From NCBI GenBank assembly GCA_934246625.1, contig CAKQHZ010000001.1, positions 540,001-572,000 on the forward strand: a stretch of 32,000 bases of DNA, given 5' to 3'. Under the pieces are notes generated by a model. The model was not told the origin of the DNA and made no database searches. It worked only from the letters and a program-made list of their open reading frames with translations. How positions within the stretch are numbered: position 1 is the stretch's first letter; every line of letters begins with the position of its first letter. The stretch is from an uncultured Alphaproteobacteria bacterium (lineage in GTDB: Bacteria; Pseudomonadota; Alphaproteobacteria; Rs-D84; CACZYB01). Of the stretch, positions 6,776 through 23,910 are shown piece after piece. The position numbers and the translations under genes are program-made.

Positions 6776-7464
6776 TAATATTTTCCCAATAATTTATTTT
6801 CTAATTTTAGTTCAATATCTTGCCAATTAGGGATTTTAGATGATAATAATTTATAAAATTCTGTTGAATGAGTTTCATAATAATAATGGCAAAGTTCATG
6901 TGTAATAATATAATCAATTGCCTTTTTAGAGGCTTGTATTAAAGCTGGATTTAATATTATTTCATGTTTTTTTAAATAGCTTCCCCATCTTTTGTTTAAT
7001 TTTCTAACTTTTAATGTAGGTATAGGAAAATCAAATGTTTTCATTATTTCCTTTAATCTATTATTAAAGATTGTTATGGATTTTTTTAATAACCATTTAT
7101 TGAAAATGTGATTGATTTCATTTATTTTTTGAGGATGAGAAGAATAAAAAATAATTTTATTTCTTTCAACTTTTACTAAATTATTTAAACATGATTTTTG
7201 AATTATAAATTGATATTGTCTTCCAAGATACAAAATACTACTTCCAGATACAATATTTTTTTGTTTTACAGGATTAAACTTTGAAAAATATTCAATTTTA
7301 TCATTTATCCATTGTTTTTTCCTTTTAACAAAATCTTGAATTTTATCTTCGGTTGCATCTATTGGTGTTTTAATAACAACAGAACCATCAGGAAAAACTG
7401 TTGCAGAAATAGTTTTTCTCTGTTCTTTAATAATCTCTTTAATTCTTATATCAGATATAACCAT
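6775..7464 (-). CDS. DUF45 / YgjP-like (M48-type) zinc metallopeptidase
   Basis: HELCH (HExxH) is followed by a downstream His (ETHSTEFYKLL) near the C-terminus, and the size of about 230 aa fits the DUF45 (COG1451) layout. The start codon overlaps the hsdR stop (TAATG). Confidence 0.75.
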   Translation of the reverse strand: MVISDIRIKEIIKEQRKTISATVFPDGSVVIKTPIDATEDKIQDFVKRKKQWINDKIEYFSKFNPVKQKNIVSGSSILYLGRQYQFIIQKSCLNNLVKVERNKIIFYSSHPQKINEINHIFNKWLLKKSITIFNNRLKEIMKTFDFPIPTLKVRKLNKRWGSYLKKHEIILNPALIQASKKAIDYIITHELCHYYYETHSTEFYKLLSSKIPNWQDIELKLENKLLGKY

Positions 7465-10622: not shown

Positions 10623-10624
10623 TT

Positions 10625-10972
10625 TTATTTATCCTTATTTTTTAATATATATTGTTGTAAATCATCCAAAAAACTATCAGGTAAAATAAACCACGTCGGA
10701 TATCCACGAGTATTGGGATAACCGGTACAAGTTTTATCTTTATTATTAGCATGCGTTTCGTATTCTGAAGAAGCAATATTCCAACGCATAGCTAAATGAA
10801 TTCCATTATCATCTTCTATTTTAGCAATAATATAATTTTTTCCATCATAAACCGTTCCAGAAAATTTATACCTCATCGGAGAAATACTTTTTTCATAATC
10901 ATAACAATTATAATATTTCCCTTTATATTCTATTTCTATTTTTTTCTTTTTTTCTAAAATTTTACTTACCAT
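10625..10972 (-). CDS. hypothetical protein (115 aa) between hsdS and hsdR
   Basis: SD AGGAG overlaps the hsdS stop, 8 nt before the ATG. Its stop lies 2 nt before the hsdR ATG. No recognisable motif and no hydrophobic segment. Confidence 0.65.
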   Translation of the reverse strand: MVSKILEKKKKIEIEYKGKYYNCYDYEKSISPMRYKFSGTVYDGKNYIIAKIEDDNGIHLAMRWNIASSEYETHANNKDKTCTGYPNTRGYPTWFILPDSFLDDLQQYILKNKDK

Positions 10973-10981
10973 ATCTATCTC

Positions 10982-12151
10982 CTATTTATTCACTTTTACT
11001 CTTATCTTTCCGGTAAGAAGTTGTTGCATAAGGCCTTTCTTTTGTGTTTTAAGAGCTTCTAATTTTTGATTAAGTAAGTTAATTTCATCATCTGCCGTTG
11101 ATAAAACATCCGCAATAGCTTGTTGTTCAGATATGTCGGATGGGATAAATAGTTTAATTTTTTTAATATCATTACTTCCAATATTTGGTTGAGCTCCACC
11201 ATAAGACATTCTAAGAATTTTATTATTAAAACGCATTAAATATTGATTGATGAAGCATTGATTACTTTTTTTAGCCCTTATAATTCCTACACGTTGGTTA
11301 AGAAGCATAGGAGTAACAGTTTTATTTATTCCCATTTTTCCTGTAGTTGCACCAGACATGGCGATTAATAAATCTTGTTGTTTAATACAATATTTTTGAT
11401 ATTTTTGCAAAGATGATGTGTCTAAAAAAACAGTATCTTTATCTAAAGATAATTTATCATCTTCTATATTAGATATACGAATTAAGGGAATACCATTTTC
11501 CTTAAAATCATTACTATCAAAAGAGTAACCTAAAATAAATTCTGCAATCTCACCTAACTTTACTTCTTTCCAAGGTTGTGTGAAGCCGGATAGGCGGGTT
11601 TTGTCGGTCAAGAGTTTTTGCATCAGGCCTTTTTTGAGGAGCTTTTTCTGCTCTATCAGATCAGACACCTTTTCAATCGCCTCATCCCAACAACTCAATA
11701 TCTCCGCAATCTTCTCCTGTTCAGCAAGTGGGGGAACAACTACTTTATACCAAGAAACTTGAGGAACTGTCAGTTGAGGAACACCTGTATTTTCATTAAA
11801 AAATTTAATACGACTACAAGAATAACTCATAAATTTTGTATTTATATTATTTTTTGGAATAGCTGTAATTAAACGTACTATAGGAGTGAACTTTCCCTCA
11901 CGATAAAAGACTTTTCCTATATCTCCTCTACCTGTAATAGTAATGCATTCATTTTTTATTTTATACTTTGAACTGTATCCATATAAACCTTTGTTTGTAA
12001 GAGCATTAGCATATATAGGATACGGATGTAAATCATCTTTTACATCAGAAAAACAATCCTTATCAACATCACCTCCTGCTGAAAAGGAAAATATTTCTCC
12101 AAGTTTTTTAATATCCCATCCTTTTGGTATATTTATGTTATTTGTTGCCAT
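10982..12151 (-). CDS. hsdS: type I restriction-modification specificity subunit (two target-recognition domains)
   Basis: 389 aa with two variable halves, each followed by a conserved helical region: PPLAEQEKIAEIL...KKGLMQKLLT and ISEQQAIADVL...KKGLMQQLLTGK. This is the classical HsdS architecture. Confidence 0.9.
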   Translation of the reverse strand: MATNNINIPKGWDIKKLGEIFSFSAGGDVDKDCFSDVKDDLHPYPIYANALTNKGLYGYSSKYKIKNECITITGRGDIGKVFYREGKFTPIVRLITAIPKNNINTKFMSYSCSRIKFFNENTGVPQLTVPQVSWYKVVVPPLAEQEKIAEILSCWDEAIEKVSDLIEQKKLLKKGLMQKLLTDKTRLSGFTQPWKEVKLGEIAEFILGYSFDSNDFKENGIPLIRISNIEDDKLSLDKDTVFLDTSSLQKYQKYCIKQQDLLIAMSGATTGKMGINKTVTPMLLNQRVGIIRAKKSNQCFINQYLMRFNNKILRMSYGGAQPNIGSNDIKKIKLFIPSDISEQQAIADVLSTADDEINLLNQKLEALKTQKKGLMQQLLTGKIRVKVNK

Positions 12152-13106
12152 TTGTTTTACTCTTATCCATATAATTAAATAATTCTAATTCTTTAATTTC
12201 TTTATCGACAATATCTATTTTTATTTGTTTTGTTTCTTTTTCTGTTGTTTTATAGATAGATAATGCTGTAATTTTTTTCTTTTTTAAGACATTATAATCA
12301 AAATTTAAAATTCCAGAAATTGATAGGTTAGCATAAACAAAATCTCCTTGAGTAAAAGATATTTCTTTATTTTGCATAAGATGTTTAAAGCCATCATCTT
12401 CCACAGAAAAATAAATTATATCTCCATCAATTAAAACTGGAATATCTCCTCTCTTTATAGTACTTCCTTGATATATTCCAACCCATAATCTTTTACTATT
12501 ATCGACTAATACTGGAGAAACTAATTCAATAATAACTTTATCAAAATTTTCTGAATATATTTTTTCTTCAGCTACATAATCAAAATTTTTGAATTGTGAA
12601 CGTTGAATCTTTGTATCAGACAAAATAGTATTATCTTTTTTGACTATTAAATTTTCAGATTTTAAACTTTCATCTTTATTTAATGCTTGATATTTTTTTG
12701 ATAATGCTTTTTTTATGTCAACATCTTCACAAACCTCATGTAATATACCTTGAAAGTTAGCTGTATCACAATCAACTCCTAAATTTTTAGCCTTCATTGC
12801 TAAATCTAATTTTTTATTTGCTTCATCGTATTTGTTTGAAAATAATATTGGCCATAATGCTACTAATAACGAAATCCAAGGAAGTATTTTTTCGCTATTA
12901 AATTTTATTTTTATAGTATCTTGGTAACACCCATTTTTAGGAATTGTAAGTTTTATTTCATAATAATCTTCAGATATTCCCATTTTATCTAAAACCGAAT
13001 TTAAAACTTTTATTGTAGCTTCAGACGCTATATTTCTAGCTTCTGGAACAATTTCGGCATTTAATACTTCATAATGAGATTCAAAAAATAAAACATTATC
13101 TTCCAT
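12138..13106 (-). CDS. hypothetical protein (322 aa) with one internal hydrophobic helix, embedded between hsdM and hsdS
   Basis: SD GGAG lies 9 nt upstream. The 3' end overlaps the hsdS start by 14 nt. Hydrophobic segment ILPWISLLVALWPILF at about aa 74-89. The C-terminal half looks beta-rich. I found no Walker A, HExxH, HEPN Rx4-6H or nuclease motif. Confidence 0.7.
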   Translation of the reverse strand: MEDNVLFFESHYEVLNAEIVPEARNIASEATIKVLNSVLDKMGISEDYYEIKLTIPKNGCYQDTIKIKFNSEKILPWISLLVALWPILFSNKYDEANKKLDLAMKAKNLGVDCDTANFQGILHEVCEDVDIKKALSKKYQALNKDESLKSENLIVKKDNTILSDTKIQRSQFKNFDYVAEEKIYSENFDKVIIELVSPVLVDNSKRLWVGIYQGSTIKRGDIPVLIDGDIIYFSVEDDGFKHLMQNKEISFTQGDFVYANLSISGILNFDYNVLKKKKITALSIYKTTEKETKQIKIDIVDKEIKELELFNYMDKSKTNGNK

Positions 13107-13124
13107 TTAATAGTCTCCATAATA

Positions 13125-13865
13125 TTAATTACTCTTATCACTAGTTTTATCTATATATTTAGCATCAATAACTTTTCCATTTTCTTTATTTTTTGGATTT
13201 TCTTTTTTATTAACAATGTTTATAATATTGTTAATAACAAGCATATTTGTTTTGTTATTTAATTTTTCTTTATTTATTAGATGCATTAAATGATCTATTT
13301 TATATTTTGCAGGCAAAAATTTACAAAAATAAAATATAAATTCCTTTATTTTGGAATATATTTTTTCAATAATGTTTTTATCATCATTAAATACTTTACG
13401 CAAAATTAACTTATCTAATTTTATAGATACATATCTTAATGTATTATAACTTTCGATGAGTTTATTTTGTAACATTCGCTTATATGGACTATTTTTTTCA
13501 CACTTTGAAATAATTTCATATTGATCTAAAATATATTGAGAATAGAAAAAAATTCGTGTAAATAATAGTGATGCCTTAGGATTTAAAAGTTGAAATTCTA
13601 AAAAATCTTTTTCTTTTGTCCATTTTAATATAAAATTAAACGCTTGAGATATATTTTTATTTATTACTTCAACTCTTTTACATTTTTCTAGTCCTGTGAT
13701 TTTATTATGTATAAAAAGAGAGATAAAATTTAACTGTTTATTGTAAAAAACATCCTGACGTTGTTTTTCCATTATTTTCATTTGTCTATACATCCAAAAT
13801 AATGTAACTAGACCAACAAATAATGTTATAACATGTTGATAATTTGCTAAATATATTTTTTCCAT
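13125..13865 (-). CDS. hypothetical N-terminally membrane-anchored protein (246 aa), embedded between hsdM and hsdS
   Basis: Strong SD AAGGAG lies upstream. N-terminal hydrophobic helix HVITLFVGLVTLFWMY. The rest looks helical and Lys/Asn-rich. No catalytic motif recognised. Confidence 0.7.
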   Translation of the reverse strand: MEKIYLANYQHVITLFVGLVTLFWMYRQMKIMEKQRQDVFYNKQLNFISLFIHNKITGLEKCKRVEVINKNISQAFNFILKWTKEKDFLEFQLLNPKASLLFTRIFFYSQYILDQYEIISKCEKNSPYKRMLQNKLIESYNTLRYVSIKLDKLILRKVFNDDKNIIEKIYSKIKEFIFYFCKFLPAKYKIDHLMHLINKEKLNNKTNMLVINNIINIVNKKENPKNKENGKVIDAKYIDKTSDKSN

Positions 13866-13889
13866 TTTAATACTCCTTTTATTATTTAA

Positions 13890-15398
13890 CTATTCTTTCA
13901 ATTCCAATTCTTTCAAATATTTATTCATTTTTTCTTCTATTTGTTTTATTTCTTCCTCAACTTTTTTTATTTCTGCACGAGTGTTTGGAATATCAACAAT
14001 TTCTTCCTCTTCATAGGTATCAACATAACGAGGAATATTAAGATTATATTCATTTTCCTCAATTTCTTTTATTGTTGCGATATGAGAGTATTTTTCAATT
14101 TCCTTACGATTTTTATATGTATCAACAATCTTTGCAATATGTTCATCAGAAAGGTTATTTTGATTTTTCCCTGGAACAAATTCCCTTGATGCATCAATGA
14201 ATAAAATATCTTTACGATTTTCATTTGCACCACCTTTTTCCCTTGATCTATCAAACACAAGGATTGCAACAGGAATACCAGTTGTTTGGAAAAGTCCAGC
14301 GGGAAGCCCAATAACTGCATCCAAAATATTTTCTTCAATAAATGCTTTTCTGATACGACCTTCGGCAGAACCACGGAACAAAACTCCGTGAGGAACAACT
14401 ACTGCAACACGACCTTCTTTTGCTTTTGCTGTTTCAATCATATGAGTAATAAATGCATAATCTCCTTTACTTGCAGGAGGCATACCTCTATGAAAACGAT
14501 TGTATTTGTCGTTATTGACTTTTCCTTCATCAGCCCATTTATCCAAAGAAAATGGTGGATTTGCAACAATTACATCAAACTTCATCAAACCATCATCATC
14601 AGTAAGTTTTGGTTCATTTATTGTATCACCCCACTCAATACGAGCTGAATCTTGTTTATGTAAAAACATATTCATACGAGCAAGATTGTATGTAGTTCCT
14701 GTTTTTTCCTGACCATACAATGCATAATTAGTTGAGCCGCTTTCACGAACTTCATTTCCCGCAATAATAAGAAGACCTGCAGAACCACAAGTTGGATCAC
14801 AAATCTTATCTCCTTCTTTTGGATTAGCTAATTTTGCAACAAGTTTACATATTTGTTTTGGGGTAAAGAATTCTCCCGCTTTCTTTCCTGCTTCCGAACC
14901 AAACTTTTCAATCATATACATGTATGAGTTACCAAGAATATCATCTCCAACTTCTGTTAAATCAATTTTATTAAAATCATTTAACAAATCTCTTATCATT
15001 TTGGATCGTTGAGATGTTGGTCCAAGTATCTTCTCATCATTAAAATCAACTGTAAAAATACCTTTTAATGCTTCATTTGCATCTTCAATCTTTCTAAGTG
15101 CAATATTTAATAATTCCCCAATATTACTTTCCGATTGATGAATATAAATATCTTTAAAAGAAGTTCCTTTTGGCATAATAAATCTTGAATTTTGAAGACG
15201 CATTTCAATACGAGCTTCATCATCACCATATTTCTCTTTTAACTTTTTGTATTCGACTTCATGCAAATCACTCATATATTTATAAAACAAAAGTGAAAGT
15301 ACATAATCCTTAAATACACCACTATCAACAGTTCCTCTTGAAGAGTCTGCAGCTGACCATAATGTTTTATTTAATTCGTCTTGAGTTATACTAGCCAT
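13890..15398 (-). CDS. hsdM: type I restriction-modification N6-adenine DNA methyltransferase subunit
   Basis: N-terminal HsdM_N-like segment LWSAADSSRG...LLFYKYMSD. AdoMet motif I is DPTCGSAGLL and catalytic motif IV is NPPFS. SD AAGGAG lies upstream. Confidence 0.95.
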   Translation of the reverse strand: MASITQDELNKTLWSAADSSRGTVDSGVFKDYVLSLLFYKYMSDLHEVEYKKLKEKYGDDEARIEMRLQNSRFIMPKGTSFKDIYIHQSESNIGELLNIALRKIEDANEALKGIFTVDFNDEKILGPTSQRSKMIRDLLNDFNKIDLTEVGDDILGNSYMYMIEKFGSEAGKKAGEFFTPKQICKLVAKLANPKEGDKICDPTCGSAGLLIIAGNEVRESGSTNYALYGQEKTGTTYNLARMNMFLHKQDSARIEWGDTINEPKLTDDDGLMKFDVIVANPPFSLDKWADEGKVNNDKYNRFHRGMPPASKGDYAFITHMIETAKAKEGRVAVVVPHGVLFRGSAEGRIRKAFIEENILDAVIGLPAGLFQTTGIPVAILVFDRSREKGGANENRKDILFIDASREFVPGKNQNNLSDEHIAKIVDTYKNRKEIEKYSHIATIKEIEENEYNLNIPRYVDTYEEEEIVDIPNTRAEIKKVEEEIKQIEEKMNKYLKELELKE

Positions 15399-15954
15399 TT
15401 ATTACTCCTTTTATAGTTTTATTGATTCTTTGAGTTTCAAGATTTAACAACTCTTTTAATAAAGTCGTTTTCCTCTCATATAATTTTACAATCTCCGAAA
15501 GTTTTTTTTGTTTTTCCAATGAAATCAATGGAATTTCAACTTGCTTTAAGGTTTTTAGTGTTATTGCAGGTATAGTCATAACTTCCTGCAAAGAAAATAA
15601 TTGTTTTTGACCTTCCGAGGAATTCAAATATGCAGAAATATATTCCGGTAAAATATTACTATCATCTTTTACTGAAAGAATAAAAATACCACCTGATGCA
15701 ACTGTGTTTTTGGAAGGATTAAACACGCAAGATTTAAACACCCCTCTATTTGTTATAAGTATACTGTTTTTATTAAGACAATGTTTTCTCCTAACTGTTT
15801 CATCAGAAACCTTAACCAAATCAGAAAAATCACCACTTAGAATATTTTTGGGCTGAATTACAGAAATAACACCATTATGTTCAGGAAGTATCTTACCACG
15901 AAAAGCATACCCTAAACAAATTTCACAAATAGAATCTAACATTACCACATTCAT
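15391..15954 (-). CDS. hsdS: half-size type I specificity subunit (single target-recognition domain plus one conserved helix)
   Basis: HsdS-like pattern: LDSICEICLGYAFRGK, ITNRGVF, LPEYISAYLNSSEGQKQL, then IPLISLEKQKKLSEIVKLYERK. There is only one TRD. I place the start at ATG 15954 because the ORF-track TTG at 15990 is itself the -35 hexamer of the promoter. ATG 15942 is an alternative start. It overlaps the hsdM start by 8 nt. Confidence 0.7.
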   Translation of the reverse strand: MNVVMLDSICEICLGYAFRGKILPEHNGVISVIQPKNILSGDFSDLVKVSDETVRRKHCLNKNSILITNRGVFKSCVFNPSKNTVASGGIFILSVKDDSNILPEYISAYLNSSEGQKQLFSLQEVMTIPAITLKTLKQVEIPLISLEKQKKLSEIVKLYERKTTLLKELLNLETQRINKTIKGVING

Positions 15955-15961
15955 ACCTATA

Positions 15962-15990
15962 AATATATAGTATAAAACGAAATCTGTCAA
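15962..15990 (-). promoter_or_regulatory. near-consensus sigma70-type promoter of the type I R-M operon
   Basis: Minus strand: TTGACA (15990-15985), 17 nt spacer, TATATT (15967-15962). The first in-frame ATG begins 7 nt after the -10 hexamer. Confidence 0.55.
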
Positions 15991-16251
15991 GAAAAATTTG
16001 CAATATTTTAATATTGTTATACTTTCTTTCTGCTTTAAGGTATTTCAAAAAATATTGGTATCTTTGTAAATGTTCTAAAATAATAAGTTTCAAGAAAAAT
16101 AATGCTTTTCATATTATATCCCTAATTTTAGTAAAGGGGTGGGGATTTTGAATAATTGTTTTTAATGGTGGATTGATTTTTTTAATCAGTAAAAATCCTT
16201 CAAAAATAAATTTTAAAGTTTGGATATTCAATAAAATCAAGGAGTTAATAT

Positions 16252-16325
16252 TGGAGCGGGTGAAGGGAATCGAACCCTCACGGCCAGCTTGGAAGGCTGG
16301 AACTCTACCATTGAGCTACACCCGC
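16252..16325 (-). tRNA. tRNA-Gly, anticodon UCC, CCA encoded
   Basis: The reverse complement is GCGGGTGTAGCTCAATGGTAGAGTTCCAGCCTTCCAAGCTGGCCGTGAGGGTTCGATTCCCTTCACCCGCTCCA. It folds as a cloverleaf: 7-bp acceptor GCGGGTG/CACCCGC, anticodon stem CCAGC/GCTGG with loop CTTCCAA, and a T-arm with GTTCGATTC. Confidence 0.93.
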
Positions 16326-16589
16326 AAAGATAAAGATGTAGAAAAGAATATATCTTTTTTTTATAAGTTGCAAGTAAAAAATACAAAGTATGCTGATTTT
16401 ATTCTTTTTTATTTAAAATTTTTGTAAACTCTTTGAAAATAATTTTACTTTAACTTAAATAATTTAACTATTTGATTTTTTATAAATAATATTTTTTGTT
16501 TGAAAAAATGAAAAAAAATAGTGGAAATTTCTAAAATATACTATATATTTGTTTTTGTAAGATAATATTTCATATATAAGGAGATAAAA

Positions 16590-17588
16590 ATGGAAGAAAT
16601 TATTTTCCCTAATAAAATAAGATTATTAAGAAAAATGGCTGGTAAATCTATGCAAGATTTGGCTGACCAACTTGGTGTAAGTTTATCTGCAATTTCAAAA
16701 ATTGAAAAAGGTTATAGAAAAATTGACCAAGAACAAATGATGATTGTTGCAAATTTCCTTGGTTGTTCTATGACAGATATTTTTATTTCTGAAGATGAAG
16801 ACGATGAAGCAATACTTGTTGCTTGGAAAAAAGAAATTGAAAGACGTGTCCAACTTAATCAAAATAATGGACTTAAAATTTTTGGTGCTGGCTTAAGACT
16901 TATCAGAAGTAATAAAGATATGACTTTGATGGAAGTCGCAGAAGCTGCTGGATTGACTTTGTCTGTGTATCATAGAATTGAAATAGGTCAACGTGAAATT
17001 TATGAACAAGAATTGTTTAATATTGCACGTGCTCTTGGTATGACAACCAAAGAAGTTTTAACAAAAATTTATGAGCTTAAAAAAGATGGAAGTCTTGATA
17101 GATTTATCAATTCAGGTAATAACCCAATCGATTCTATTGCAAAAATGAGTGATATTCTTAAAACAACAGAAAATGTTTATACTCCATCTGGTGTTGTTAA
17201 GTTTAATAAGGTTCTTGTTTATTCAAAAACTTTGGAAAATGGAAATATGATTGTGGATAAGGCAAACAAAGATTATGTCGTATATCCTGTAAGTGATAAA
17301 AAAGTTGAAAATATTTATGCTTTGGAACTTTCAAGCAGACGTCTTGGAAACATTATTCCTATGCGTTCAATTCTTTTTGTTGATGCAAATCAAGCTGTAA
17401 GAAGTGGTGATATTGCGGTTCAAGTTCTTCAAGATTTGGACGATAAAATGGAAATCCGCTTTGTTTCTGTGAAGGAAGACATTGATGGAAAGTTTTATGG
17501 TGTAATGTTCAATCCAGATGAAAAGGTTGAATTAAGCTCAGCAGATTTGGCAAAACTTCAAAGAGTTGTTCTTATTTCAATGAGCTAA
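16590..17588 (+). CDS. XRE-family transcriptional regulator with two tandem HTH domains and an S24/LexA-like (apparently non-catalytic) C-terminal domain
   Basis: HTH 1: IRLLRKMAGKSMQDLADQLGVSLSAISKIEKG. HTH 2: LRLIRSNKDMTLMEVAEAAGLTLSVYHRIEIG. The C-terminal 120 aa or so resembles the S24 beta-fold (..IIPMRSILFVDANQAVRSGDIAV..), but the Ser and Lys positions appear substituted. SD AAGGAG lies upstream. Confidence 0.8.
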   Translation: MEEIIFPNKIRLLRKMAGKSMQDLADQLGVSLSAISKIEKGYRKIDQEQMMIVANFLGCSMTDIFISEDEDDEAILVAWKKEIERRVQLNQNNGLKIFGAGLRLIRSNKDMTLMEVAEAAGLTLSVYHRIEIGQREIYEQELFNIARALGMTTKEVLTKIYELKKDGSLDRFINSGNNPIDSIAKMSDILKTTENVYTPSGVVKFNKVLVYSKTLENGNMIVDKANKDYVVYPVSDKKVENIYALELSSRRLGNIIPMRSILFVDANQAVRSGDIAVQVLQDLDDKMEIRFVSVKEDIDGKFYGVMFNPDEKVELSSADLAKLQRVVLISMS

Positions 17589-17648
17589 AAAAAATAAATT
17601 AGTTTGAGGGGAAAAAGAAATTATTTTGATGATTTCTTTTAGGGGCTA

Positions 17649-18434
17649 ATGGATAATAAAAATAACTTAAATTTTAGTGAATTTCAATCAAGGGAAAGAG
17701 CTATCGCAGTTGGAAAAAGGTATCTTAACCTTTTTCATCAACTTCATGTGATTCAAGCTGGATTAACAGTGTTGAATAAGGATTTTATTGCTTTGCCTGA
17801 TGATGTTATTGCTATATTGCCAGAGCTTGCTGGTGGTGCAAAGTTCAGACAACATATTTTAAATTTGAAATCTGGTATTACTCCGATTGATAAAATTGAT
17901 GCAGATTTGCTTCCTTTTGGTGAAGAAGTTTTTGATGATAAGGATTTGTATATAAAATATACTCAATATAATACAAATTCTAAAGCTAAAAAAACGGAAA
18001 ATAAAGTTTCTGATAAAAAAGAGGTTGTCTCTGAAGTTGTCAAAGAAGAAGTTGCAGAAAGTCTTGATGATGAAAATGCAAAGGTGATTTTTGAACTTCT
18101 TAGAAAATTTCAAAATAATCCAAAGGATTTAGAAGCATTTAAGTCAAAGGAAGAAGTTCGTGATTTTGGACCAGAATGGAAATCAAAAATTTCAGAATTG
18201 ATTGAAAAATCAAATGAAAAGGATAAGTCCAATTTGAAAAAGATTTTTGATGGTCTTTGTATTTTTGATTATGCTTTGAATATTTGGCAAGAATGTGTTG
18301 CATTGATTAAAAATCCAAAATCAAAGAGTAAAGAAGATGTTGCATCAAAACTTGACGAATATAAAAAGTATTTGAATATGTTTGGAGATGCGGGAAATCG
18401 TTTGTATGAAAAAGTCGAATCTTTAACTAAATAA
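17649..18434 (+). CDS. hypothetical acidic protein (261 aa); C-terminal domain paralogous to the N-terminal domain of the next gene
   Basis: SD AGGGG lies 3 nt upstream of the ATG. No signal peptide. Central Lys/Glu-rich linker. The C-terminal FGPEWK...FDYALNIW...EYKKYLNMFGDAGNRLYEK aligns with aa 42-123 of the 18445 gene. Confidence 0.65.
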   Translation: MDNKNNLNFSEFQSRERAIAVGKRYLNLFHQLHVIQAGLTVLNKDFIALPDDVIAILPELAGGAKFRQHILNLKSGITPIDKIDADLLPFGEEVFDDKDLYIKYTQYNTNSKAKKTENKVSDKKEVVSEVVKEEVAESLDDENAKVIFELLRKFQNNPKDLEAFKSKEEVRDFGPEWKSKISELIEKSNEKDKSNLKKIFDGLCIFDYALNIWQECVALIKNPKSKSKEDVASKLDEYKKYLNMFGDAGNRLYEKVESLTK

Positions 18435-18444
18435 GGAATAAAAG

Positions 18445-19443
18445 ATGAGTTTTTTTCAAAAATTCTTTCAGAAAAAAATAACTATCCAAGATGTTTTATT
18501 ATCTTTGGAAAATTTTTCAAATGATGTAAAGTCATTGAATAATGTTTCACAAATTTCATCTGAATTTTTTGGGGTGAATTGGAAATTTAATTTGGAAATG
18601 TATATCAATACTATACCAAAAGATGATAAGGAAAAATATTTATCCTTGTTTTATAATGTATTGACTTTTGATAAGGCTTTGGGGCTTTGGACTTCGGCAC
18701 AGCAGGTTTTAAAGGGTGCGAAAACTTTGTCTGCTGATATGATAAAGGATATTGGTGAGTATGAGGAGTATTTACCAAAATTTGGTGTTGAAGGAGTAAG
18801 GCTTCTTGAAAAATTTAAGGAAAAATTTAATTTCCCTAATGTTATAACTCCAAAAGATGAAAATGTTGTTGAAGATACAAAAAAGGTTGAAGATGTCGTT
18901 GATGTAAACGAAAACGAATCCGAACCTGAGACTGAAAAAGTTGAAGTGCAGGAAGATGTTAAGACTACTCCTGTGTCCTCAAAAATTTTGCATAAAGTTT
19001 CAGTAAAAGATTTGGAAGAGGGTGTATTTTGTAAATTCCCACGTGAAGAAAAAACTTTTGAAGAAGATAAAGTTGAACCAGTTGTTAATAATAGTATGGG
19101 TGATGATTGGGAATTGAAAAATTTTAGAATGGTTCATAATTTTGTTTCACAGGTTCGTGAGGTAATGTCTGCTATTTCTTTGTTTAAAAATGCTCAATCA
19201 TTGGAAGAATATCCTTACTATGGTTTTGTTATTGACACTATTGATTATTTGATTGCTCAGGGAAACAAGATTTTATCAATAAAATCCAATGAAGAAATAG
19301 AAAAGTATTTTCCCGCTGGGGCAAAGGAAGTTGAAGATATAATTTCATTTTATACTAAACAAAAACAAGATGAAGTTGTTATGCCAGTTGAAATGAAATC
19401 TGATGAAAAAGATAAAAAAGAATATGAAATTATAGAAGATTAA
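18445..19443 (+). CDS. hypothetical acidic protein (332 aa); N-terminal domain paralogous to the preceding gene
   Basis: 10-nt gap after the previous gene, containing AGGAA. FGVNWK...FDKALGLW...EYEEYLPKFGVEGVRLLEK matches the previous protein. Asp/Glu/Val-rich linker at aa 135-215. No signal peptide. Confidence 0.65.
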   Translation: MSFFQKFFQKKITIQDVLLSLENFSNDVKSLNNVSQISSEFFGVNWKFNLEMYINTIPKDDKEKYLSLFYNVLTFDKALGLWTSAQQVLKGAKTLSADMIKDIGEYEEYLPKFGVEGVRLLEKFKEKFNFPNVITPKDENVVEDTKKVEDVVDVNENESEPETEKVEVQEDVKTTPVSSKILHKVSVKDLEEGVFCKFPREEKTFEEDKVEPVVNNSMGDDWELKNFRMVHNFVSQVREVMSAISLFKNAQSLEEYPYYGFVIDTIDYLIAQGNKILSIKSNEEIEKYFPAGAKEVEDIISFYTKQKQDEVVMPVEMKSDEKDKKEYEIIED

Positions 19444-19498
19444 ATTTTTGCTGGTATTTATTGAAAATACAATATAAAATAAATCCGTGTGAGGTAAA

Positions 19499-20785
19499 AT
19501 GAAGTTAAATAAATTTTTATATATAGCAAGTTTTTTATTTATAATTTCTTGTTCAGATGATTATAACAATGGTATGGTTATGCAAACACCTTATGTTGTA
19601 GAAAATTCTTCTTATGATATAAAGGTTAATGATTATGTTCCTGTGTTTGATAAAACTCCATCTCGAACTTTGGAAAATGTAGAAAAATTTAATTTGGAAA
19701 CTCCTCTTCGTTGTGAAGTCGATTGGGATTCTCAATCTATTATTTCAACACAACCTTTTGCAAGACGTGATTTCTTCTTGGAACGTGTTGATAAGGGTGA
19801 TGCCTTGCCAGTATTAAAAGTTGATAACCTTTCTTTTGAAAATAAACCTGTAGATGAAGTTTTAAGAACTTTGCTTAAAAATACAGGGATTCAGGTTTAT
19901 GCAACCGATTTATATTATAAAAAGATTTCACAAAGTGAATTAAGTGGTGATTTGACAAAGGTTGTTGATTTAATTGCTTCACTTGGAAATGTTTATTATT
20001 CTTATGATAACAGAATTAAACGAATCACATTACGAAAATTTGCAAAATGGAATTTGCATGTGCCACTTTCTTCTGATGTAATACTTGCAATGGAAGATGC
20101 TTTGCGTGGTGCGGATATTGATGATATTGTTATTGATTGGGAAGACAAGGTTATTATATTTCAGGGTGATGTTGTTGTTGAAGACAAGGTTAGAAATATA
20201 GTTAATAAGTTTGAACGTGAGAATTATTTGCTTGCCTTTGATATTGATGTTTATCGTGTTTATCCAAAAACTTTGAATGGTTCAATTATTTGGATGAATA
20301 TTTTAGAGGCGTTTAATCCTAGGTCAATAAAGTTATCTCAAAAGGGTTTGATTGGTAGAGCTTTGGTTGTATCATCAAACTTTAATAGAGATAGTTTGAA
20401 CGAATTCCTTATTCCACAGGCTAATGTTGTGCTTGTATCAAGTGGAACTTTTATTACTCCTGACAGATGGCAAGGTAGATTTGATATTGGTAGATGTGGC
20501 CGTGAAGTAAGATTGGAAACTGATTTGAATATTTTGACTCAGGCTCAATTTTATCCAAATGATAAAAATGTTGGAAAACTTGATTCAACTATTGTGCTTA
20601 GAACTTCAAATGGTGATATTGCAAAATATACTGTGCCAAGTAGGTTAGGTGATAATATCCTTATTATTGGTATTCCAACACAATATTTTGTTGATGGAAA
20701 GGAAACTATTATTCCTCCTAATGCTGAGTTAGTTGTGCTTGTAAGTCCAAGAATTATTAAAATTGTTCATCCTCTTGAAAAATAG
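19499..20785 (+). CDS. secretin-like outer-membrane lipoprotein (428 aa; one N0-type domain plus a secretin-like C-terminal domain)
   Basis: Lipobox FIISC, with Cys at residue 18. N0-like segment LSFENKPVDEVLRTLLKNTGIQVYATD. The C-terminal region follows the secretin pattern as I recall it: FDIDVYRV..., ...VVLVSSGTFITPDRWQGRFDIG, IIGIPTQYF. It ends in ELVVLVSPRII, the typical secretin terminal motif. SD GAGG lies upstream. Confidence 0.55.
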   Translation: MKLNKFLYIASFLFIISCSDDYNNGMVMQTPYVVENSSYDIKVNDYVPVFDKTPSRTLENVEKFNLETPLRCEVDWDSQSIISTQPFARRDFFLERVDKGDALPVLKVDNLSFENKPVDEVLRTLLKNTGIQVYATDLYYKKISQSELSGDLTKVVDLIASLGNVYYSYDNRIKRITLRKFAKWNLHVPLSSDVILAMEDALRGADIDDIVIDWEDKVIIFQGDVVVEDKVRNIVNKFERENYLLAFDIDVYRVYPKTLNGSIIWMNILEAFNPRSIKLSQKGLIGRALVVSSNFNRDSLNEFLIPQANVVLVSSGTFITPDRWQGRFDIGRCGREVRLETDLNILTQAQFYPNDKNVGKLDSTIVLRTSNGDIAKYTVPSRLGDNILIIGIPTQYFVDGKETIIPPNAELVVLVSPRIIKIVHPLEK

Positions 20786-20792
20786 GTTTTTT

Positions 20793-22073
20793 ATGTTTAT
20801 TAAATATTTTGAACTTTTGGTCGCTTGGCGTTATTTGAAATCAAAAAGAAAAGATGGATTTATTTCTATTATAACTTATCTTTCCCTTATTGGTATTATG
20901 CTTGGTGTGGCAACTCTTATTATTGTTATGTCTGTGATGAATGGGTTTCGTGAAGAAATGCTTTCAAAAATTCTTGGTATGAATGGGCATATTACAGTAA
21001 TGTCAGCTTTTACTCGTGAAATCGATAATCAAAATAAGGTTGTGAATAAGATTGTGTCTTCTGATTTGTCCTCTTTTATAAAAGATAATGATTTTATTAT
21101 TCCGATTATCGAAGATCAGGTGATGATGTCATCTGAAGGAACTTCTTTGGGTGGAATGCTTCGTGCGATGAATATTGGGGATATAAAAAAGTTGTCTCCT
21201 GTGTTTAAAAGTGTGTATGGGCTTGATATGGAAGGTAATGATTTTCCTGTGCTTGAAAATGGTGATATTCTAATTGGTTATCAACTTGCAAATAAACTTG
21301 GGGTTGATATTGGTGATGAAATTACTTTGACTACAGCAAAAGGAAATATTACAGCATTTGGCACTATACCAAGGATAAAATCTTATCGTGTTGGTGCAGT
21401 GTTTAATACAGGAATGTCAATGTATGATTCTGGGTTTGTGTTTATGCAAATGCAAGATGCTCAACTTTTCTTTGATATGGAAAATAAAGTTTCTCATATT
21501 GAAATATTTTTAAACAATCCAGATGATGCAGGTGTGTTTGCAGGTTTACTTAAAAAGGCAATTTCTCCTATGTTTAGGGTTTATACATGGCAAGACCAAA
21601 ATTCATCTTTTGTGTCTGCATTAAATGTTGAACGTAATGTTATGTTTTTGATTTTGACTTTGATAATCCTTGTTGCTTCATTTAATATTATTTCATCTTT
21701 GGTTATGTTGGTGAAGGATAAATCTCATGATATTGCAGTGTTTAGGACTATTGGTGCAAGTCGTGGAAATATTATGAAAATATTTTTTATTGCGGGAAGT
21801 TTGATTGGTGTTGTTGGAACGTTTTTGGGGGTTGGACTTGGACTTGCGATAAGTTTTAATATTGAATGGGTAAGGCAAGTTTTTCAAAAATTAACAGGAA
21901 CAAAGTTATTTCCTGATGATGTTTATTTCTTGACTGAACTTCCTTCAAAGGTTGAATATAGTGAAGTTTTTTGGGTTGTGGCAATGTCATTGGCAATTTC
22001 ATTTTTGGCAACACTTTATCCATCACGAAAGGCTGCAAAACAAGAACCAATAGATGTGTTAAGGTATGAATAA
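20793..22073 (+). CDS. lolE: lipoprotein-releasing ABC transporter permease, LolC/E family (single permease gene)
   Basis: FELLVAWRYLKSKRKDGFISIITYLSLIGIMLGVATLIIVMSVMNGF is the characteristic LolC/E N-terminus. There is a large periplasmic loop and a C-terminal FtsX-like 3-TM bundle. I use ATG 20793 because the ORF-track TTG at 20763 would overlap the upstream gene. Confidence 0.88.
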   Translation: MFIKYFELLVAWRYLKSKRKDGFISIITYLSLIGIMLGVATLIIVMSVMNGFREEMLSKILGMNGHITVMSAFTREIDNQNKVVNKIVSSDLSSFIKDNDFIIPIIEDQVMMSSEGTSLGGMLRAMNIGDIKKLSPVFKSVYGLDMEGNDFPVLENGDILIGYQLANKLGVDIGDEITLTTAKGNITAFGTIPRIKSYRVGAVFNTGMSMYDSGFVFMQMQDAQLFFDMENKVSHIEIFLNNPDDAGVFAGLLKKAISPMFRVYTWQDQNSSFVSALNVERNVMFLILTLIILVASFNIISSLVMLVKDKSHDIAVFRTIGASRGNIMKIFFIAGSLIGVVGTFLGVGLGLAISFNIEWVRQVFQKLTGTKLFPDDVYFLTELPSKVEYSEVFWVVAMSLAISFLATLYPSRKAAKQEPIDVLRYE

Positions 22074-22827
22074 AATGGCTGATAATGTTATTTTAGAGTT
22101 GAAAAATATTACCAAAACTTTTAATCAAGGGGACAGTAAACTTGTGATTCTTGATGATGCTTCTTTTTCAATTAAAAGGGGTGAAATTGTTGCACTTATT
22201 GGTCCATCTGGAACTGGAAAATCTACACTTCTTTATATTGCTGGATTGCTTGATAAGGCAAGTAAAGGAGAAGTCATTATTGATGGAAAAAATACGCATA
22301 AGTTAAATGATAATCAAAAAACAAAACTAAGATGTAAAAAAATTGGGTTTGTGTATCAACAGCATAATTTATTTGCGGATTTTACTGCACTTGAAAATGT
22401 TATGATGCCGTTGTTGATTGCTGGTGTAAAAAAGAAAAGAGCCGTTGAAATTGCTTCTGTGCAGTTGGATAAAATGGGGCTTTCAAATCGATTGAATCAT
22501 AAATCAAGTGAGCTTTCTGGTGGTGAACAACAACGTGTGGCGATTGCCAGAGCTTTGGCAAATGCTCCTCAACTTTTGCTTGCCGATGAGCCGACTGGAA
22601 ATTTGGATCCGTATAATTCGGAATTTGTTTTTGAAAATTTGTTATCTCTGGTAAAAAATGATGGAATGACAGCATTTATTGCAACACATAATCCTATACT
22701 TGCAAATAAAATGGATAGAAAAGTTGCTTTGATTGATGGCAAATTAGTTGACATTGATTTAAAAGAAAATTATAATCTGCTTCACAAATCAATTATTGGT
22801 AAAAGAATTTTAGAATCATTTAAGTAG
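22066..22827 (+). CDS. lolD: lipoprotein-releasing ABC transporter ATP-binding protein
   Basis: Walker A GPSGTGKST, signature LSGGEQQRVAIARA, Walker B LLLADEPTGNLD. The start overlaps the lolE stop (ATGAATAA). ATG 22075 is an alternative start. Confidence 0.9.
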   Translation: MNKMADNVILELKNITKTFNQGDSKLVILDDASFSIKRGEIVALIGPSGTGKSTLLYIAGLLDKASKGEVIIDGKNTHKLNDNQKTKLRCKKIGFVYQQHNLFADFTALENVMMPLLIAGVKKKRAVEIASVQLDKMGLSNRLNHKSSELSGGEQQRVAIARALANAPQLLLADEPTGNLDPYNSEFVFENLLSLVKNDGMTAFIATHNPILANKMDRKVALIDGKLVDIDLKENYNLLHKSIIGKRILESFK

Positions 22828-22842
22828 TGAAAAGTTTTTGTT

Positions 22843-23304
22843 ATGAAGAATAAGCGTATTTTTAATTCTGACGATGTGTATAATTTTCGTGAATCTTTAA
22901 GTCATTATGGTATAATTCCAATTTTTCAACGATGGAATGAAATAAGTGATCGTTTTTATGAATTAGTTGGGTTTGCACGACCTTTGGATAATTCTGACCT
23001 TGATGTGATTAACTTTTTTAAGCAGAAGTTTTTTACAGAGATTTCTTTTGAAGATGCAAAGTATATGTTGAAAGGTTATATATATGTTATAAAGCATACT
23101 GATATTTATCATAAGGAAAATGATAAGTTAGAGATAAAAGTCCTTTCAAAAAAGTTGCCTGTTTCTGATAAAATGTTTCAAGATTTTTTTATGAAAATGA
23201 AAAAATTTCGAAAGGAAAAAATTTTGAATTACCTTCGTGAATTGGAAACTGCTCAATTTGCAAAAATTGCAACTTTTGATTTTGATGATGAAAAGAAACG
23301 ATAA
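22843..23304 (+). CDS. hypothetical protein (153 aa)
   Basis: Open frame 15 nt after lolD on the same strand. No motif recognised. Confidence 0.55.
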   Translation: MKNKRIFNSDDVYNFRESLSHYGIIPIFQRWNEISDRFYELVGFARPLDNSDLDVINFFKQKFFTEISFEDAKYMLKGYIYVIKHTDIYHKENDKLEIKVLSKKLPVSDKMFQDFFMKMKKFRKEKILNYLRELETAQFAKIATFDFDDEKKR

Positions 23305-23910
23305 CTATTTTACCAAATCAAAAATTTCACCACGGATTTCTTCAAGTCCAGTTCCATTTTCTGAACTTGTTGCAATTATTATTGGGTGCATTGCAGGGTG
23401 TTCGTTGTAAATTTTTTCAGTTTCAGATTTGATTTTTTCAAGGTCCTTGGCTGATATTTTATCGGTTTTAGTTATAATTATTTGATAATTAACGGCGGCT
23501 GTATCAAGCATTTTCATCATATCTGTATCAACCTTTTTTATGCCTTGTCGCGAATCGATAAGTAAAAATACACGACGAAGTTGAGCACGACCCTTTAGGT
23601 AAGTATTAACATTTTCGTTCCAATTTTTTACCATATCTTTTGGTGCCTTTGCAAAGCCGTATCCAGGTAAATCAACAACCATCATTTTATCAATCATATT
23701 GAAAAAATTAAGGGTTTGAGTGCGTCCTGGGGTTGATGAGGTTTTTGCCAAATTTGGAGTGTTGAAAATTGCATTTATCAAAGATGATTTTCCAACATTT
23801 GAGCGTCCGATGAAAGCTATCTCTCTTTGTGAAGAATATGGAATTTGCATCACAGAAGGAAAACTTCCAACAAAGGTAGGTTTATTTTTGAAAAAATCCT
23901 TTAGTTTCAT
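23305..23910 (-). CDS. engB: ribosome-biogenesis GTPase YihA/YsxC (EngB)
   Basis: G1 GRSNVGKSSLIN, G2/G3 TPGRTQ...VDLPGYGFA and G4 TKTDK. It lies downstream of yidC, as in many proteobacteria. Confidence 0.9.
   Translation of the reverse strand: MKLKDFFKNKPTFVGSFPSVMQIPYSSQREIAFIGRSNVGKSSLINAIFNTPNLAKTSSTPGRTQTLNFFNMIDKMMVVDLPGYGFAKAPKDMVKNWNENVNTYLKGRAQLRRVFLLIDSRQGIKKVDTDMMKMLDTAAVNYQIIITKTDKISAKDLEKIKSETEKIYNEHPAMHPIIIATSSENGTGLEEIRGEIFDLVK

Follow-up and report, generated by a model that had tools for sequence, protein, structure and literature searches.

Secretins normally work with pilus, T2SS or T4SS-type machines, and the question raised by this locus is what a secretin-like lipoprotein might do when it is encoded together with its own regulator and lolED in a neighbourhood from which any such machine is missing. 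The host is an alphaproteobacterium of the gut whose genome is very small. A preliminary description of the window (the whole stretch of 32,000 nucleotides that was analysed) had placed six genes on the same strand, and their positions were confirmed both by the ORFs and by independent gene calls from the same species; these six ORFs are considered real genes because conserved homologues of each protein occur in many species. The first four form a block (16590-17588, 17649-18434, 18445-19443 and 19499-20785, all on the + strand) with intergenic gaps of 60, 10 and 55 nt, followed by 7 nt before lolE. The good ribosome-binding sites attributed to the block were found before each start codon (AAGGAG, AGGGG, AAGGAA and GAGG, in gene order), and that of lolE is weak only. 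There was likewise no terminator-like site between the genes, the sole match in 15900-23500 falling within the secretin ORF. Judged solely by this spacing and absence of terminators, the block may be co-transcribed with lolED.

The 428-amino-acid lipoprotein and the lolE-lolD junction

The last gene of the block (19499..20785, + strand) is predicted to encode a divergent lipidated secretin of 428 amino acids, with a signal peptide and a lipobox (IIS-C18, nt 19499-19552). These are followed by a family-specific N segment containing C72; an N0/STN-like domain (amino acids ~105-187); an N1-like domain (amino acids ~188-256); and a shortened secretin domain (amino acids ~257-428) containing C333. 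Residues C18, C72 and C333 are conserved, the cysteine pair C72 and C333 throughout the family.

The initial identification of this protein as a secretin-like lipoprotein was borne out by fold matches and by profile and hhalign homology to Secretin-domain proteins. Its AlphaFold2 model had a pLDDT of 80.9, and the top 36 Foldseek matches in the PDB were all secretins, with BfpB as the top match (8e-11) and PilQ (1.7e-10), InvG, GspD and pIV among the others. Monomer TM-scores against solved secretins were low (0.15-0.28), as would be expected when a single protomer is modelled. The Pfam Secretin model did not match the protein; its family profile reached PF00263 Secretin proteins with E-values of 1e-20 to 1e-12, and hhalign against PF00263 proteins aligned amino acids 78-428 (99.9%, E 4.6e-34) with three deletions of 19, 15 and 15 amino acids (~50 residues) in the secretin domain by comparison with classical secretins. 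An STN match was sub-threshold in 30 of the 43 family members. On these profile comparisons and the predicted fold, the 428-amino-acid protein is a real but very divergent secretin, homologous to Secretin-domain proteins, and its closest classical relatives are type IVb-pilus-like liposecretins. Both the secretin family that it represents and the gene context are new.

lolE (20793..22073, + strand) encodes a LolC/E-type lipoprotein-releasing ABC permease (NCBIfam TIGR02212 lolCE equivalog, 422 bits against a cut-off of 362; Pfam MacB_PCD and FtsX). Its ATG at 20793 lies 7 nt past the secretin stop, and the gene for a lolD-like ABC ATPase (22066..22827, + strand) overlaps it by 8 nt, both as first described, with an alternative lolD start at 22075. 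The best NCBIfam match of the ATPase was TIGR02211 LolD (264 bits, below the 307.75 cut-off), with Pfam ABC_tran at 4e-34. The linkage to lolE-lolD also held, in that the secretin-lolE-lolD junction persists throughout Rs-D84, an order with reduced genomes: lolE lies directly 3' of the secretin gene in 76 of 82 loci and lolD is present in 68 of 82, counts which overstate independent support since a single syntenic clade accounts for most of the 80 genome loci. The junction is not intrinsic to the module because it is missing in deeper relatives and in loci L018 and L022.

Partner proteins and regulator

The two genes immediately upstream of the secretin gene had been described as encoding a pair of acidic paralogues. 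The first (17649..18434, + strand) encodes a protein of 261 amino acids composed of an N domain (amino acids ~1-100), a charged linker and an X domain (amino acids ~146-261); it has neither signal peptide nor transmembrane segment (maximum hydropathy 1.29) and no match in Pfam, NCBIfam, PHROGs or PADLOC, and all 81 proteins of its family are annotated as hypothetical. The second (18445..19443, + strand) encodes a protein of 332 amino acids in which an X domain (amino acids 13-127) is joined by an acidic, disordered linker of ~90 amino acids and variable length to a Y domain (amino acids ~220-312, nt 19102-19380). It also has no signal peptide or transmembrane segment, and its AlphaFold2 model consists of two helical domains (pLDDT ~80-94) with linkers below 50, for which neither a PDB fold match nor a sequence match was found. 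The paralogy stands over a single helical domain of ~115 amino acids, the X domain (hhalign 99.5%, E 2.6e-22; BLASTP 29% identity, E 2e-10), and does not extend outside it; the acidic character is clear only for the 332-amino-acid protein (pI 4.7), the pI of the 261-amino-acid protein being 5.8.

Domain Y is encoded directly upstream of the secretin gene in 72 of the 82 related loci. In Enterousia and other clades it forms a stand-alone protein of ~107 amino acids encoded directly 5' of the secretin gene, and in L022 its gene overlaps the secretin start. Domain Y of the second protein is the universally conserved partner of the secretin.

The first gene of the block (16590..17588, + strand) encodes a regulator of 332 amino acids with two XRE/HTH_3 domains (amino acids 10-63 and 98-155), in agreement with the dual-HTH assignment made from the sequence (Pfam HTH_3, 7.9e-23, two stretches). 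Its C-terminal domain weakly resembles the LexA/CI S24 fold (Pfam Peptidase_S24, E 0.016, below cut-off). Upstream of this gene is a conserved block (16499..16550, + strand; TTGAAAAAATGAAAAAAAATAGTGGAAATTTC...TATATA) with an 8-bp palindrome, GAAATTTC, at 16524-16531. In a 220-nt alignment of 10 species, near-invariant columns 5' of the regulator gene were confined to this block and the ribosome-binding site; sigma-70-like matches lie at 16508-16537 and 16522-16549. The block is a candidate promoter or operator, from which the regulator would most likely control the module.

Downstream of the regulator gene, the spacer before the next gene contains a conserved GAGGGG motif (17606-17611) and then a 12-bp hairpin (17613-17640; together 17606..17640, + strand). 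The hairpin had been noted previously and is indeed present, with an A/U stem (z = -2.5 to -2.9) and a fold energy of -8.6 kcal/mol (z -2.9). GAGGGG with a hairpin of 9-12 bp was found in nine of ten orthologous spacers (z -1.8 to -4.65), with differing stem sequences. A classical terminator was ruled out for this hairpin because no U-tract follows the stem.

Explanations for a secretin without a nearby motor

The expectation that the four genes would be syntenic in relatives was upheld: the order regulator, N/X, X/Y, secretin is found in the clade of the window and in distant uncultured Alphaproteobacteria, and the regulator gene is also first in the module in the distant lineages L089, L091, L092, L093 and L095. 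In the closest relatives (loci L005-L007) the regulator has the highest identity of the block proteins (94-95%), against 88-90% for the secretin, 81-85% for LolE and 76-79% for LolD; the greater conservation of regulator and secretin by comparison with LolE and LolD indicates strong constraint. Outer flanks vary by clade, being a tRNA-Gly and a restriction-modification island here and ftsQ/ftsA in Enterousia. The reported lack of classical partners nearby was also substantiated, as no Pfam domain for a secretion ATPase, platform, pilin or phage morphogenesis protein was found in the window or 20 kb rightward.

On balance we lean towards this protein being a pared-down new member of the secretin superfamily in a lineage-specific module, acting with no classical pilus or T2SS motor, or else with unrecognised inner-membrane parts. 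The module would comprise the secretin, the cytoplasmic-looking helical proteins with the novel domains N, X and Y, and the dual-HTH CI/LexA-like regulator. From its lipobox, the secretin would be exported by Sec and lipidated at Cys18; the conserved junction and known Lol-dependent liposecretins suggest that LolE/LolD, encoded just downstream, would then extract it from the inner membrane, and by homology it would assemble as a secretin-type ring in the outer membrane. This ring would have only the N0 and N1 periplasmic domains and the shortened secretin domain, and the cysteine in the family-specific N segment may bond with the second invariant cysteine at a deletion site. Given the trimmed domain and the extra cysteine-bearing segment, the gating or plugging of the channel probably differs from that of T2SS, T4P and T3SS secretins. 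Domain Y would be an obligatory companion and, given its tight or translational coupling to the secretin, would most likely be a subunit or a dedicated factor for assembly or targeting. The putative partner proteins lack signal peptides and direct periplasmic contact with the mature secretin is not obvious, which speaks against this reading. Rs-D84 genomes are ~0.75-1 Mb, have no flagella and are without standard sugar, amino-acid and peptide uptake systems (PMC12306168). With most biosynthesis and the standard uptake transporters missing from these reduced genomes, the secretin would most likely serve as a large outer-membrane conduit exchanging macromolecules or bulk nutrients. A secretin with its own regulator and lolED in a motor-less neighbourhood suggests that a secretin is being used in a new way.

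It is rather unlikely that the secretin is a displaced component serving a T4P, competence pseudopilus, Tad, T2SS or rvh-type T4SS encoded elsewhere, with the local genes as accessories. Such machines are the normal partners of secretins, our view of this genome is restricted to ~50 kb in all, and one relative of the secretin, among its nearest classical relatives, sits in a cluster with VirB genes (conjugative T4SS), T2SSE and T2SSF. The module in deeper relatives additionally adjoins a gene for a bitopic inner-membrane protein and tandem genes for VirB6/TrbL-like proteins, a hallmark of Rickettsiales rvh (PMC11077975). However, ±10 kb of sequence in ~90 loci contained neither a T4SS gene nor one for a secretion ATPase, platform or pilin, and no homologue of T2SSE, T2SSF or VirB; a comparison of 19 Rs-D84 genomes reported type IV pili in another lineage only (PMC12306168); in every lineage the secretin gene has novel, conserved neighbours of its own; and its secretin domain is trimmed by comparison with those of pilus and T2SS secretins.

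We regard as improbable a domesticated remnant of a mobile element (a filamentous prophage, or the type IVb-pilus region of an element that was conjugative) that has kept a CI-like repressor and a pIV/PilN-like secretin and that would now act, if at all, in DNA transfer or uptake. The CI/LexA-like architecture of the regulator and its best NCBIfam and PHROGs matches, all phage repressors, would fit such an origin, as would the conjugative cluster around the secretin relative, the fold match to phage f1 pIV, and the adjoining tRNA-Gly and strain-variable defence island, which has an integrase in the copy of another strain. However, the variable island stops at the tRNA and excludes the block; the G+C of the block equals that of its flanks; of the block proteins only the repressor-like regulator matched a phage family; no morphogenesis or transfer gene is present; and the chromosomal site beside lolED is fixed across the order under strong purifying selection.

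Least credible is a lipoprotein-trafficking accessory, either an outer-membrane acceptor replacing a missing LolB (Alphaproteobacteria, to our knowledge, have no recognisable LolB) or an exporter of surface lipoproteins, which would explain the fixed site before lolE-lolD, retained though the flanks changed, and fits a protein that is itself a lipoprotein, but is opposed by full-length homology to channel-forming secretins, by deeper family members that lie away from lol genes and in several cases have ordinary signal peptides with no lipobox, and by conserved partners (cytoplasmic-looking proteins and a regulator) unexpected for a housekeeping Lol factor.

Comparison with known secretin systems

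The new-family reading can be set against the type IVb-pilus liposecretins (BfpB of EPEC, TcpC of Vibrio cholerae and PilN of plasmid R64), which, like the 428-amino-acid secretin, have an N-terminal lipobox, then an N0/STN-like domain and, at the C-terminus, a secretin domain that ends in an ELVV..PR.I motif. BfpB is its best solved-structure match, and bridging relatives scored best, at sub-threshold levels, against the MshL and PilN models, with one carrying a fused TcpQ domain. The small gene directly 5' of the secretin gene recalls bfpG-bfpB and tcpQ-tcpC, in which a small gene likewise lies directly 5' of the secretin gene. Unlike these liposecretins, however, the protein has no TIGR02520 or PF00263 match, has ~50 fewer residues in its secretin domain and has an extra N segment with a conserved cysteine pair; its upstream partner lacks both a signal peptide and a TcpQ domain, and genes for a pilin, ATPase, platform or prepilin peptidase are absent from the surroundings (±10 kb, ~90 loci).

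HxcQ, of the Pseudomonas aeruginosa Hxc T2SS, is a self-piloting liposecretin whose Bam and Lol dependence was reportedly the subject of a 2011 mBio paper. As for HxcQ, the lipidated secretin would be expected to use LolCDE with no separate pilotin; HxcQ, however, is a full-size GspD homologue within a complete T2SS operon, whereas the secretin here is limited to N0 and N1 domains, stands outside any T2SS context and is encoded by a gene joined to the lolE-lolD operon.

Secretin rings that conduct DNA or polymers and not T2SS substrates have precedents in HofQ, which NCBIfam names 'DNA uptake porin', and in the GspD/PilQ 'nozzles' through which cyanobacteria and myxobacteria export slime (PMC12475490). 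These precedents, however, are canonical PF00263 proteins needing pilus- or T2SS-type partners, and no such partners were seen here. Finally, the filamentous-phage protein pIV is, like the 428-amino-acid protein, a small secretin consisting of N0, N1 and secretin domains (7ofh fold match, E 1.7e-5); by contrast with pIV, the secretin described here matches no phage family and has no phage genes at its locus, and it is predicted to be lipidated, is chromosomal and is conserved across the order.

Gene layout, regulator and genomic setting

Open reading frames for the regulator (16590-17588), a 261-aa protein (17649-18434), a 332-aa protein (18445-19443) and a 428-aa lipoprotein (19499-20785) lie on the forward strand, followed in the same orientation by lolE (from the ATG at 20793) and lolD (from 22066, with an 8-nt overlap with lolE, or from 22075). 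Other contigs of this species, with gene calls made independently, have the same layout. Gaps from the regulator to lolE are 60, 10, 55 and 7 nt, and the first four genes carry the ribosome-binding sites AAGGAG, AGGGG, AAGGAA and GAGG respectively; a terminator scan returned no terminator-like site between the genes of the module. A preliminary description of four closely spaced genes with good Shine-Dalgarno sequences and no strong terminator, followed by lolE and lolD, is thereby confirmed. LolE was identified as the TIGR02212 lolCE equivalog (NCBIfam, 422 bits against an equivalog cut-off of 362), and LolD had TIGR02211 as its best match, at 264 bits and under the cut-off of 307.75.

The window has a G+C content of about 30%, and identical proteins are encoded by metagenome contigs, up to 262 kb long, from the human gut. 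Relatives occur in metagenome-assembled genomes (MAGs) from rumen, faeces and termite gut that are labelled Alphaproteobacteria, 'Rickettsiales bacterium' or Candidatus Enterousia. Enterousia, with MAGs of about 0.75-1 Mb, is placed in the uncultured order Rs-D84, in which genome reduction is general (PMC12306168); the order has no flagella, respiratory chain, biosynthesis of amino acids, nucleotides and lipids, or standard uptake systems for sugars, amino acids and peptides (PMC12306168).

To the left, the block is bordered by tRNA-Gly(UCC) (16252-16325, reverse strand) at the edge of a restriction-modification island (6775-15990) that differs between strains. In the window strain the island carries type I hsdR, hsdS and hsdM, interleaved with a PADLOC candidate PDC-S42 gene (12138-13106) and an hsdS-like ORF of half size (15391-15990). 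At this position a second strain of the species (L004) encodes an integrase and a type II system of the Bsp6I type. Further left, a 454-aa protein (1598-2962, forward strand) without a Pfam match combines a signal peptide and an Arg/Ser-rich stretch with a duplicated domain, the motif TGKIFKN being present twice; similar Arg/Ser-rich secreted proteins are encoded close to the module in one related locus (L010). The right flank comprises engB, yidC, murI, pnp, rpsO, truB and mutS, then a gene for an AI-2E-family transporter, ychF, mutL and dnaA. A perfect sigma-70 consensus (TTGACA, 17 nt, TATAAT; 22748-22776, forward strand) lies within the 3' end of lolD, and 67 nt past it starts a 153-aa ORF (22843-23304) that is conserved in the closest relatives only and has no family match.

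The regulator has two XRE-type HTH_3 domains, as expected from its description as a dual-HTH protein heading the block, and a weakly S24-like C-terminal domain (Pfam Peptidase_S24, E 0.016, a weak match whose 15 bits fall short of the cut-off of 23) in which, on comparison with CI/LexA-type repressors, a GDSM-like catalytic motif was not evident by eye. No other protein of the block is as well conserved: it has 94-95% identity in three close relatives (L005-L007), compared with 88-90% for the secretin, 81-85% for LolE and 56-59% for the 332-aa protein. A near-invariant block of about 50 nt (16499-16550), some 40-90 nt upstream of the regulator start and common to 10 species, has the palindrome GAAATTTC flanked by promoter-like hexamers. 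Its arrangement fits a transcription start with an operator, and we infer a candidate autoregulatory operator here; a repeat search for operators in three intergenic regions was uninformative, the DNA being AT-rich.

In nine of ten orthologous spacers that follow the regulator gene (L005-L013 and the window), GAGGGG precedes a hairpin of 9-12 bp; the two span 17606-17640 in the window. The hairpin at 17613-17640 that had been noticed previously is real, and A/U-rich. Stem sequences differ between species by compensatory changes, with z-scores of -1.8 to -4.65 when each orthologue was folded singly, and RNAalifold gave no consensus structure on a MAFFT alignment of the spacers because the stems were misaligned. 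In more distant relatives GAGGGG is an ordinary ribosome-binding site with no hairpin. Since no U-tract follows it, an attenuator, a processing site or a translation-coupling element is likelier than a terminator, and its conservation suggests that the regulator and the downstream genes may be coupled in a regulated manner.

Identity of the 428-aa protein and its companions

The last gene of the module had been described as encoding a secretin-like lipoprotein, with a profile check proposed. Pfam found no Secretin domain in the 428-aa protein and only a sub-threshold STN match, and NCBIfam gave no match at E ≤ 1; all 43 members of its family likewise had no Pfam Secretin match, with STN sub-threshold in 30 of the 43. 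A PDB sequence-profile search with the family also returned nothing significant, its sole match being the N0 domain of PilQ (4ar0, E 0.44). The description was upheld by three other, independent lines of evidence together with a lipobox. The first is fold: an AlphaFold2 model built with 43 homologues (pLDDT 80.9, pTM 0.69) was compared with the PDB by Foldseek, and every one of the top 36 matches was a secretin, the best being BfpB of a type IVb pilus (8e-11) and PilQ (1.7e-10), with InvG, GspD, PulD and phage pIV among the others. N-domain crystal structures of GspD, XcpQ and EscC were matched with a probability of 0.91-1.0. Global TM-scores were low (0.15-0.28), as expected for a lone protomer set against protomers derived from rings, so the match to the secretin fold is local and without global superposition.

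The second line is a search of 1.84 billion representative proteins with the family HMM, which recovered 327 proteins at E ≤ 1e-3. Among the matches listed, the tail (E 1e-20 to 1e-12) consisted of lipoproteins of 440-900 aa; nine of ten scanned had Pfam Secretin (PF00263) above threshold, several with STN in addition and one with a fused TcpQ. Third, hhalign aligned the family with 48 of these PF00263 relatives at 99.9% (E 4.6e-34, 348 columns) over residues 78-428, covering the N0 and N1 region and reaching the C-terminal ELVVLVSPRII motif. An N0 (STN-like) and N1 arrangement is found by sub-threshold STN, by hhalign and by the Foldseek N-domain matches. The 428-aa protein is a very divergent member of the secretin superfamily (PF00263 clan).

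This secretin is a small protein in which N0, N1 and a short secretin domain follow a signal peptide with lipobox. By hhalign, the secretin domain has no counterpart of three segments of 19, 15 and 15 residues present in the PF00263 relatives; these deletions would affect the inner-barrel and gate hairpins and a conserved stretch before the last strand. Residues from about 44 to 100 form an N-terminal segment specific to the family. Two cysteines, C72 in an 'RC' motif (codon 19712-19714, forward strand) and C333 in 'RFDIGxC' (codon 20495-20497, forward strand), are invariant in all 34 family members examined, deep non-lipoprotein branches included, and C333 is located exactly at the site of the 19-residue deletion. 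C72 and C333 may form a disulfide that would tether the N-terminal segment to the gate region. The lipobox reads IIS-C18, its Cys18 column being kept in at least 90% of close members; some deep members have a plain signal peptide and no lipobox. The protein shares the lipobox with the type IVb-pilus secretins (PilN/BfpB/TcpC). It had no match to their model TIGR02520, whose cut-off of 288 bits was missed even by the PF00263-bearing relatives (57-97 bits), which fell below every NCBIfam secretin cut-off and had their best partial scores with MshL and type IVb PilN.

The two proteins encoded between the regulator and the secretin had been called paralogous and acidic. They are paralogous in one domain only, and only one of them is clearly acidic (pI 4.7 for the 332-aa protein versus 5.8 for the 261-aa protein). 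In the 261-aa protein a linker joins a domain N to a domain X; the 332-aa protein has a domain X and then a domain Y, with an acidic, disordered linker between them whose length varies. Their X domains are homologous (hhalign 99.5%, E 2.6e-22). That N, X and Y might be versions of one domain was ruled out by hhalign probabilities below 2%. No signal peptide or hydrophobic segment was found in these N, X and Y proteins, and they had no match in Pfam, NCBIfam, PHROGs, PADLOC, PDB sequences or PDB folds: PDB sequence-profile searches with the acidic protein and domain Y gave nothing significant, and Foldseek with the acidic protein returned generic helical bundles only (E >0.8). Both companion families have few members (55 and 81 proteins, every one annotated 'hypothetical'), with no fusion to a known domain, including in a profile search with domain N.

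Domain Y is the constant partner of the secretin, a Y-bearing gene lying immediately upstream in 72 of the 82 loci compared. Enterousia has Y as a stand-alone protein of about 107 aa, and in a hydrothermal-sediment MAG (L022) the Y gene overlaps the secretin start codon. Within the clade of the window the secretin travels with the regulator and with the N and X proteins, the four-gene block being syntenic. More distant loci have the orders regulator, N/X protein, secretin (L089) and X/Y protein, secretin (L090), and four deep branches (L091, L092, L093 and L095) repeat the order regulator, N protein, X..Y protein, secretin. Conservation of the block, put forward for checking in the preliminary description, thus extends well beyond close relatives, and since the pattern recurs in deep branches the module is much older than the order Rs-D84. 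In Enterousia (coordinates of L027), Y-secretin-lolE-lolD is flanked by a divergently oriented gene for a 129-aa lipoprotein (9192-9581, reverse strand) and, downstream of lolD (13380-14850, forward strand), by genes for a 254-aa bitopic protein and a highly acidic, Cys-rich secreted protein; these three flanking genes are conserved in 42-54 loci.

Search for a secretion machine and deeper relatives

Every ORF in the window and in about 90 loci was compared with T2SSE, T2SSF, VirB4, VirB8, VirB9 and VirB10 from an alphaproteobacterial MAG (L085). No homologue was found within ±10 kb; two weak P-loop matches were both lolD. No secretion or pilus gene is present in a stretch of about 50 kb comprising the window and 20 kb to its right, and by the comparison with the L085 proteins none of the secretin loci (±10 kb, about 90 loci) shows a T2SS, type IV pilus, Tad, T3SS or phage-machine context. 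The earlier observation that no secretion machinery lies nearby therefore extends to the 20 kb on the right and to the related loci.

A machine encoded elsewhere, of which the secretin would be a displaced component, is an unlikely explanation. One PF00263-bearing relative does occur beside such genes, in L085 (131-21989), where it lies between virB9 and the T2SSE/T2SSF genes; it is a canonical Secretin-domain protein in a cluster ordered virB3-virB4...virB8-virB9...virB10-virB11. For Rs-D84 itself, a study of 19 genomes names type IV pili for another lineage only (PMC12306168).

The L085 cluster, a T4SS/type IVb-pilus hybrid, looks like the pilus region found in conjugative elements. Set beside this likeness, derivation of the block from a mobile element, as a domesticated remnant, is improbable: an inovirus module (pIV with a Zot/pI ATPase and coat genes) was not found, the secretin and the helical proteins having no PHROGs match and no ATPase lying nearby. 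A phage-module or defence-system reading was rejected because, among the four proteins of the block, the matches in PHROGs and PADLOC were confined to the regulator, as a generic HTH repressor.

Deeper relatives have clusters of eight genes (L091, 1-11989; L092, 1159-11725; L093, 2-10538; L095, 2952-13637) encoding three tandem VirB6/TrbL-like paralogues, the dual-HTH regulator, the N and X..Y proteins, the secretin and a bitopic protein. Two of the three paralogues preceding the regulator are above the Pfam TrbL/VirB6 threshold; the rvh T4SS of Rickettsiales is characterised by VirB6 in multiple copies (PMC11077975). In the bitopic inner-membrane protein after the secretin, a single transmembrane helix joins a Pro/Gln-rich cytoplasmic part, which varies, to a periplasmic domain of about 90 aa, which is conserved. 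Neither this protein nor the VirB6-like proteins were found near the secretin in Rs-D84 loci or the window. In L092 and L095 the cluster directly follows secD-secF, and in L095 yajC is also upstream.

The Lol junction and a proposed role

lolE-lolD directly follows the secretin gene in 76 of the 82 loci, most of them from the broadly syntenic and well-sampled clade Enterousia, which inflates the counts, so that these loci are not independent observations. Y-secretin-lolE-lolD is kept between the clade of the window and Enterousia although their outer flanks are wholly different (tRNA-Gly with a restriction-modification island and engB-yidC in the former; ftsA-ftsQ-uvrB in the latter). The linkage to lolE on which the preliminary description relied holds in this way for Rs-D84; it is missing from L018, L022 and all deeper relatives, and the junction is therefore a derived feature of the order.

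Self-piloting liposecretins are known clients of the Lol machinery, and the simplest explanation of the junction is that the lipidated secretin would be such a client; it may alternatively have arisen by chance operon compaction. That the secretin is itself an accessory of lipoprotein trafficking, as its place beside lolE-lolD might suggest, is very improbable for a secretin-superfamily protein whose deep relatives include members with neither lipobox nor Lol junction.

We lean, on balance, towards the explanation that the module encodes a lineage-specific, lipidated and trimmed secretin that forms a Lol-delivered channel with a Y-protein factor and no classical motor. The secretin would reach the outer membrane through the co-encoded LolE and LolD and there form a channel, presumably as a ring; the Y-domain protein would be a dedicated factor made along with it; and the dual-HTH regulator would control the block. 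Such a channel would operate with no motor of the classical pilus or T2SS kind, and would probably pass macromolecules or bulk nutrients, its hosts being bacteria that have to take up nearly everything.

A broader reading, which we offer tentatively and consider doubtful, is that the block is the core of an undescribed secretin-based envelope system for transport of macromolecules or bulk nutrients over the outer membrane in reduced-genome, partner-dependent Alphaproteobacteria. It would combine a gate-trimmed, Cys-tethered liposecretin ring with non-pilus partners, the helical N, X and Y proteins, to which the bitopic inner-membrane protein and the polytopic VirB6-like proteins would be added in the deeper lineages.

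The 428-aa protein is a new family in a known superfamily and in a new genetic context. Database entries for the family and its companions are all 'hypothetical protein' without Pfam domains, and a literature search found neither the family nor the N, X and Y proteins described, and no secretin adjacent to lolE. A secretin homologue is strongly conserved in Rs-D84 genomes of about 0.75-1 Mb that have shed most biosynthesis, flagella and, reportedly, pili (PMC12306168). Its channel could explain import or export of large molecules by abundant uncultured gut and rumen Alphaproteobacteria. As a naturally minimal secretin, comprising N0, N1 and a shortened barrel, the protein also lends itself to structural study of gating and Lol-dependent self-piloting. 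Secretins are, to our knowledge, known solely as the outer-membrane gates of T2SS, type IV pili, T3SS and filamentous phage. If this one works alone or with new partners, the known uses of secretins would be widened; and should the block prove to be the core of an undescribed envelope system, it would constitute a new class beside the T2SS, type IV pilus, T3SS and phage uses of secretins.
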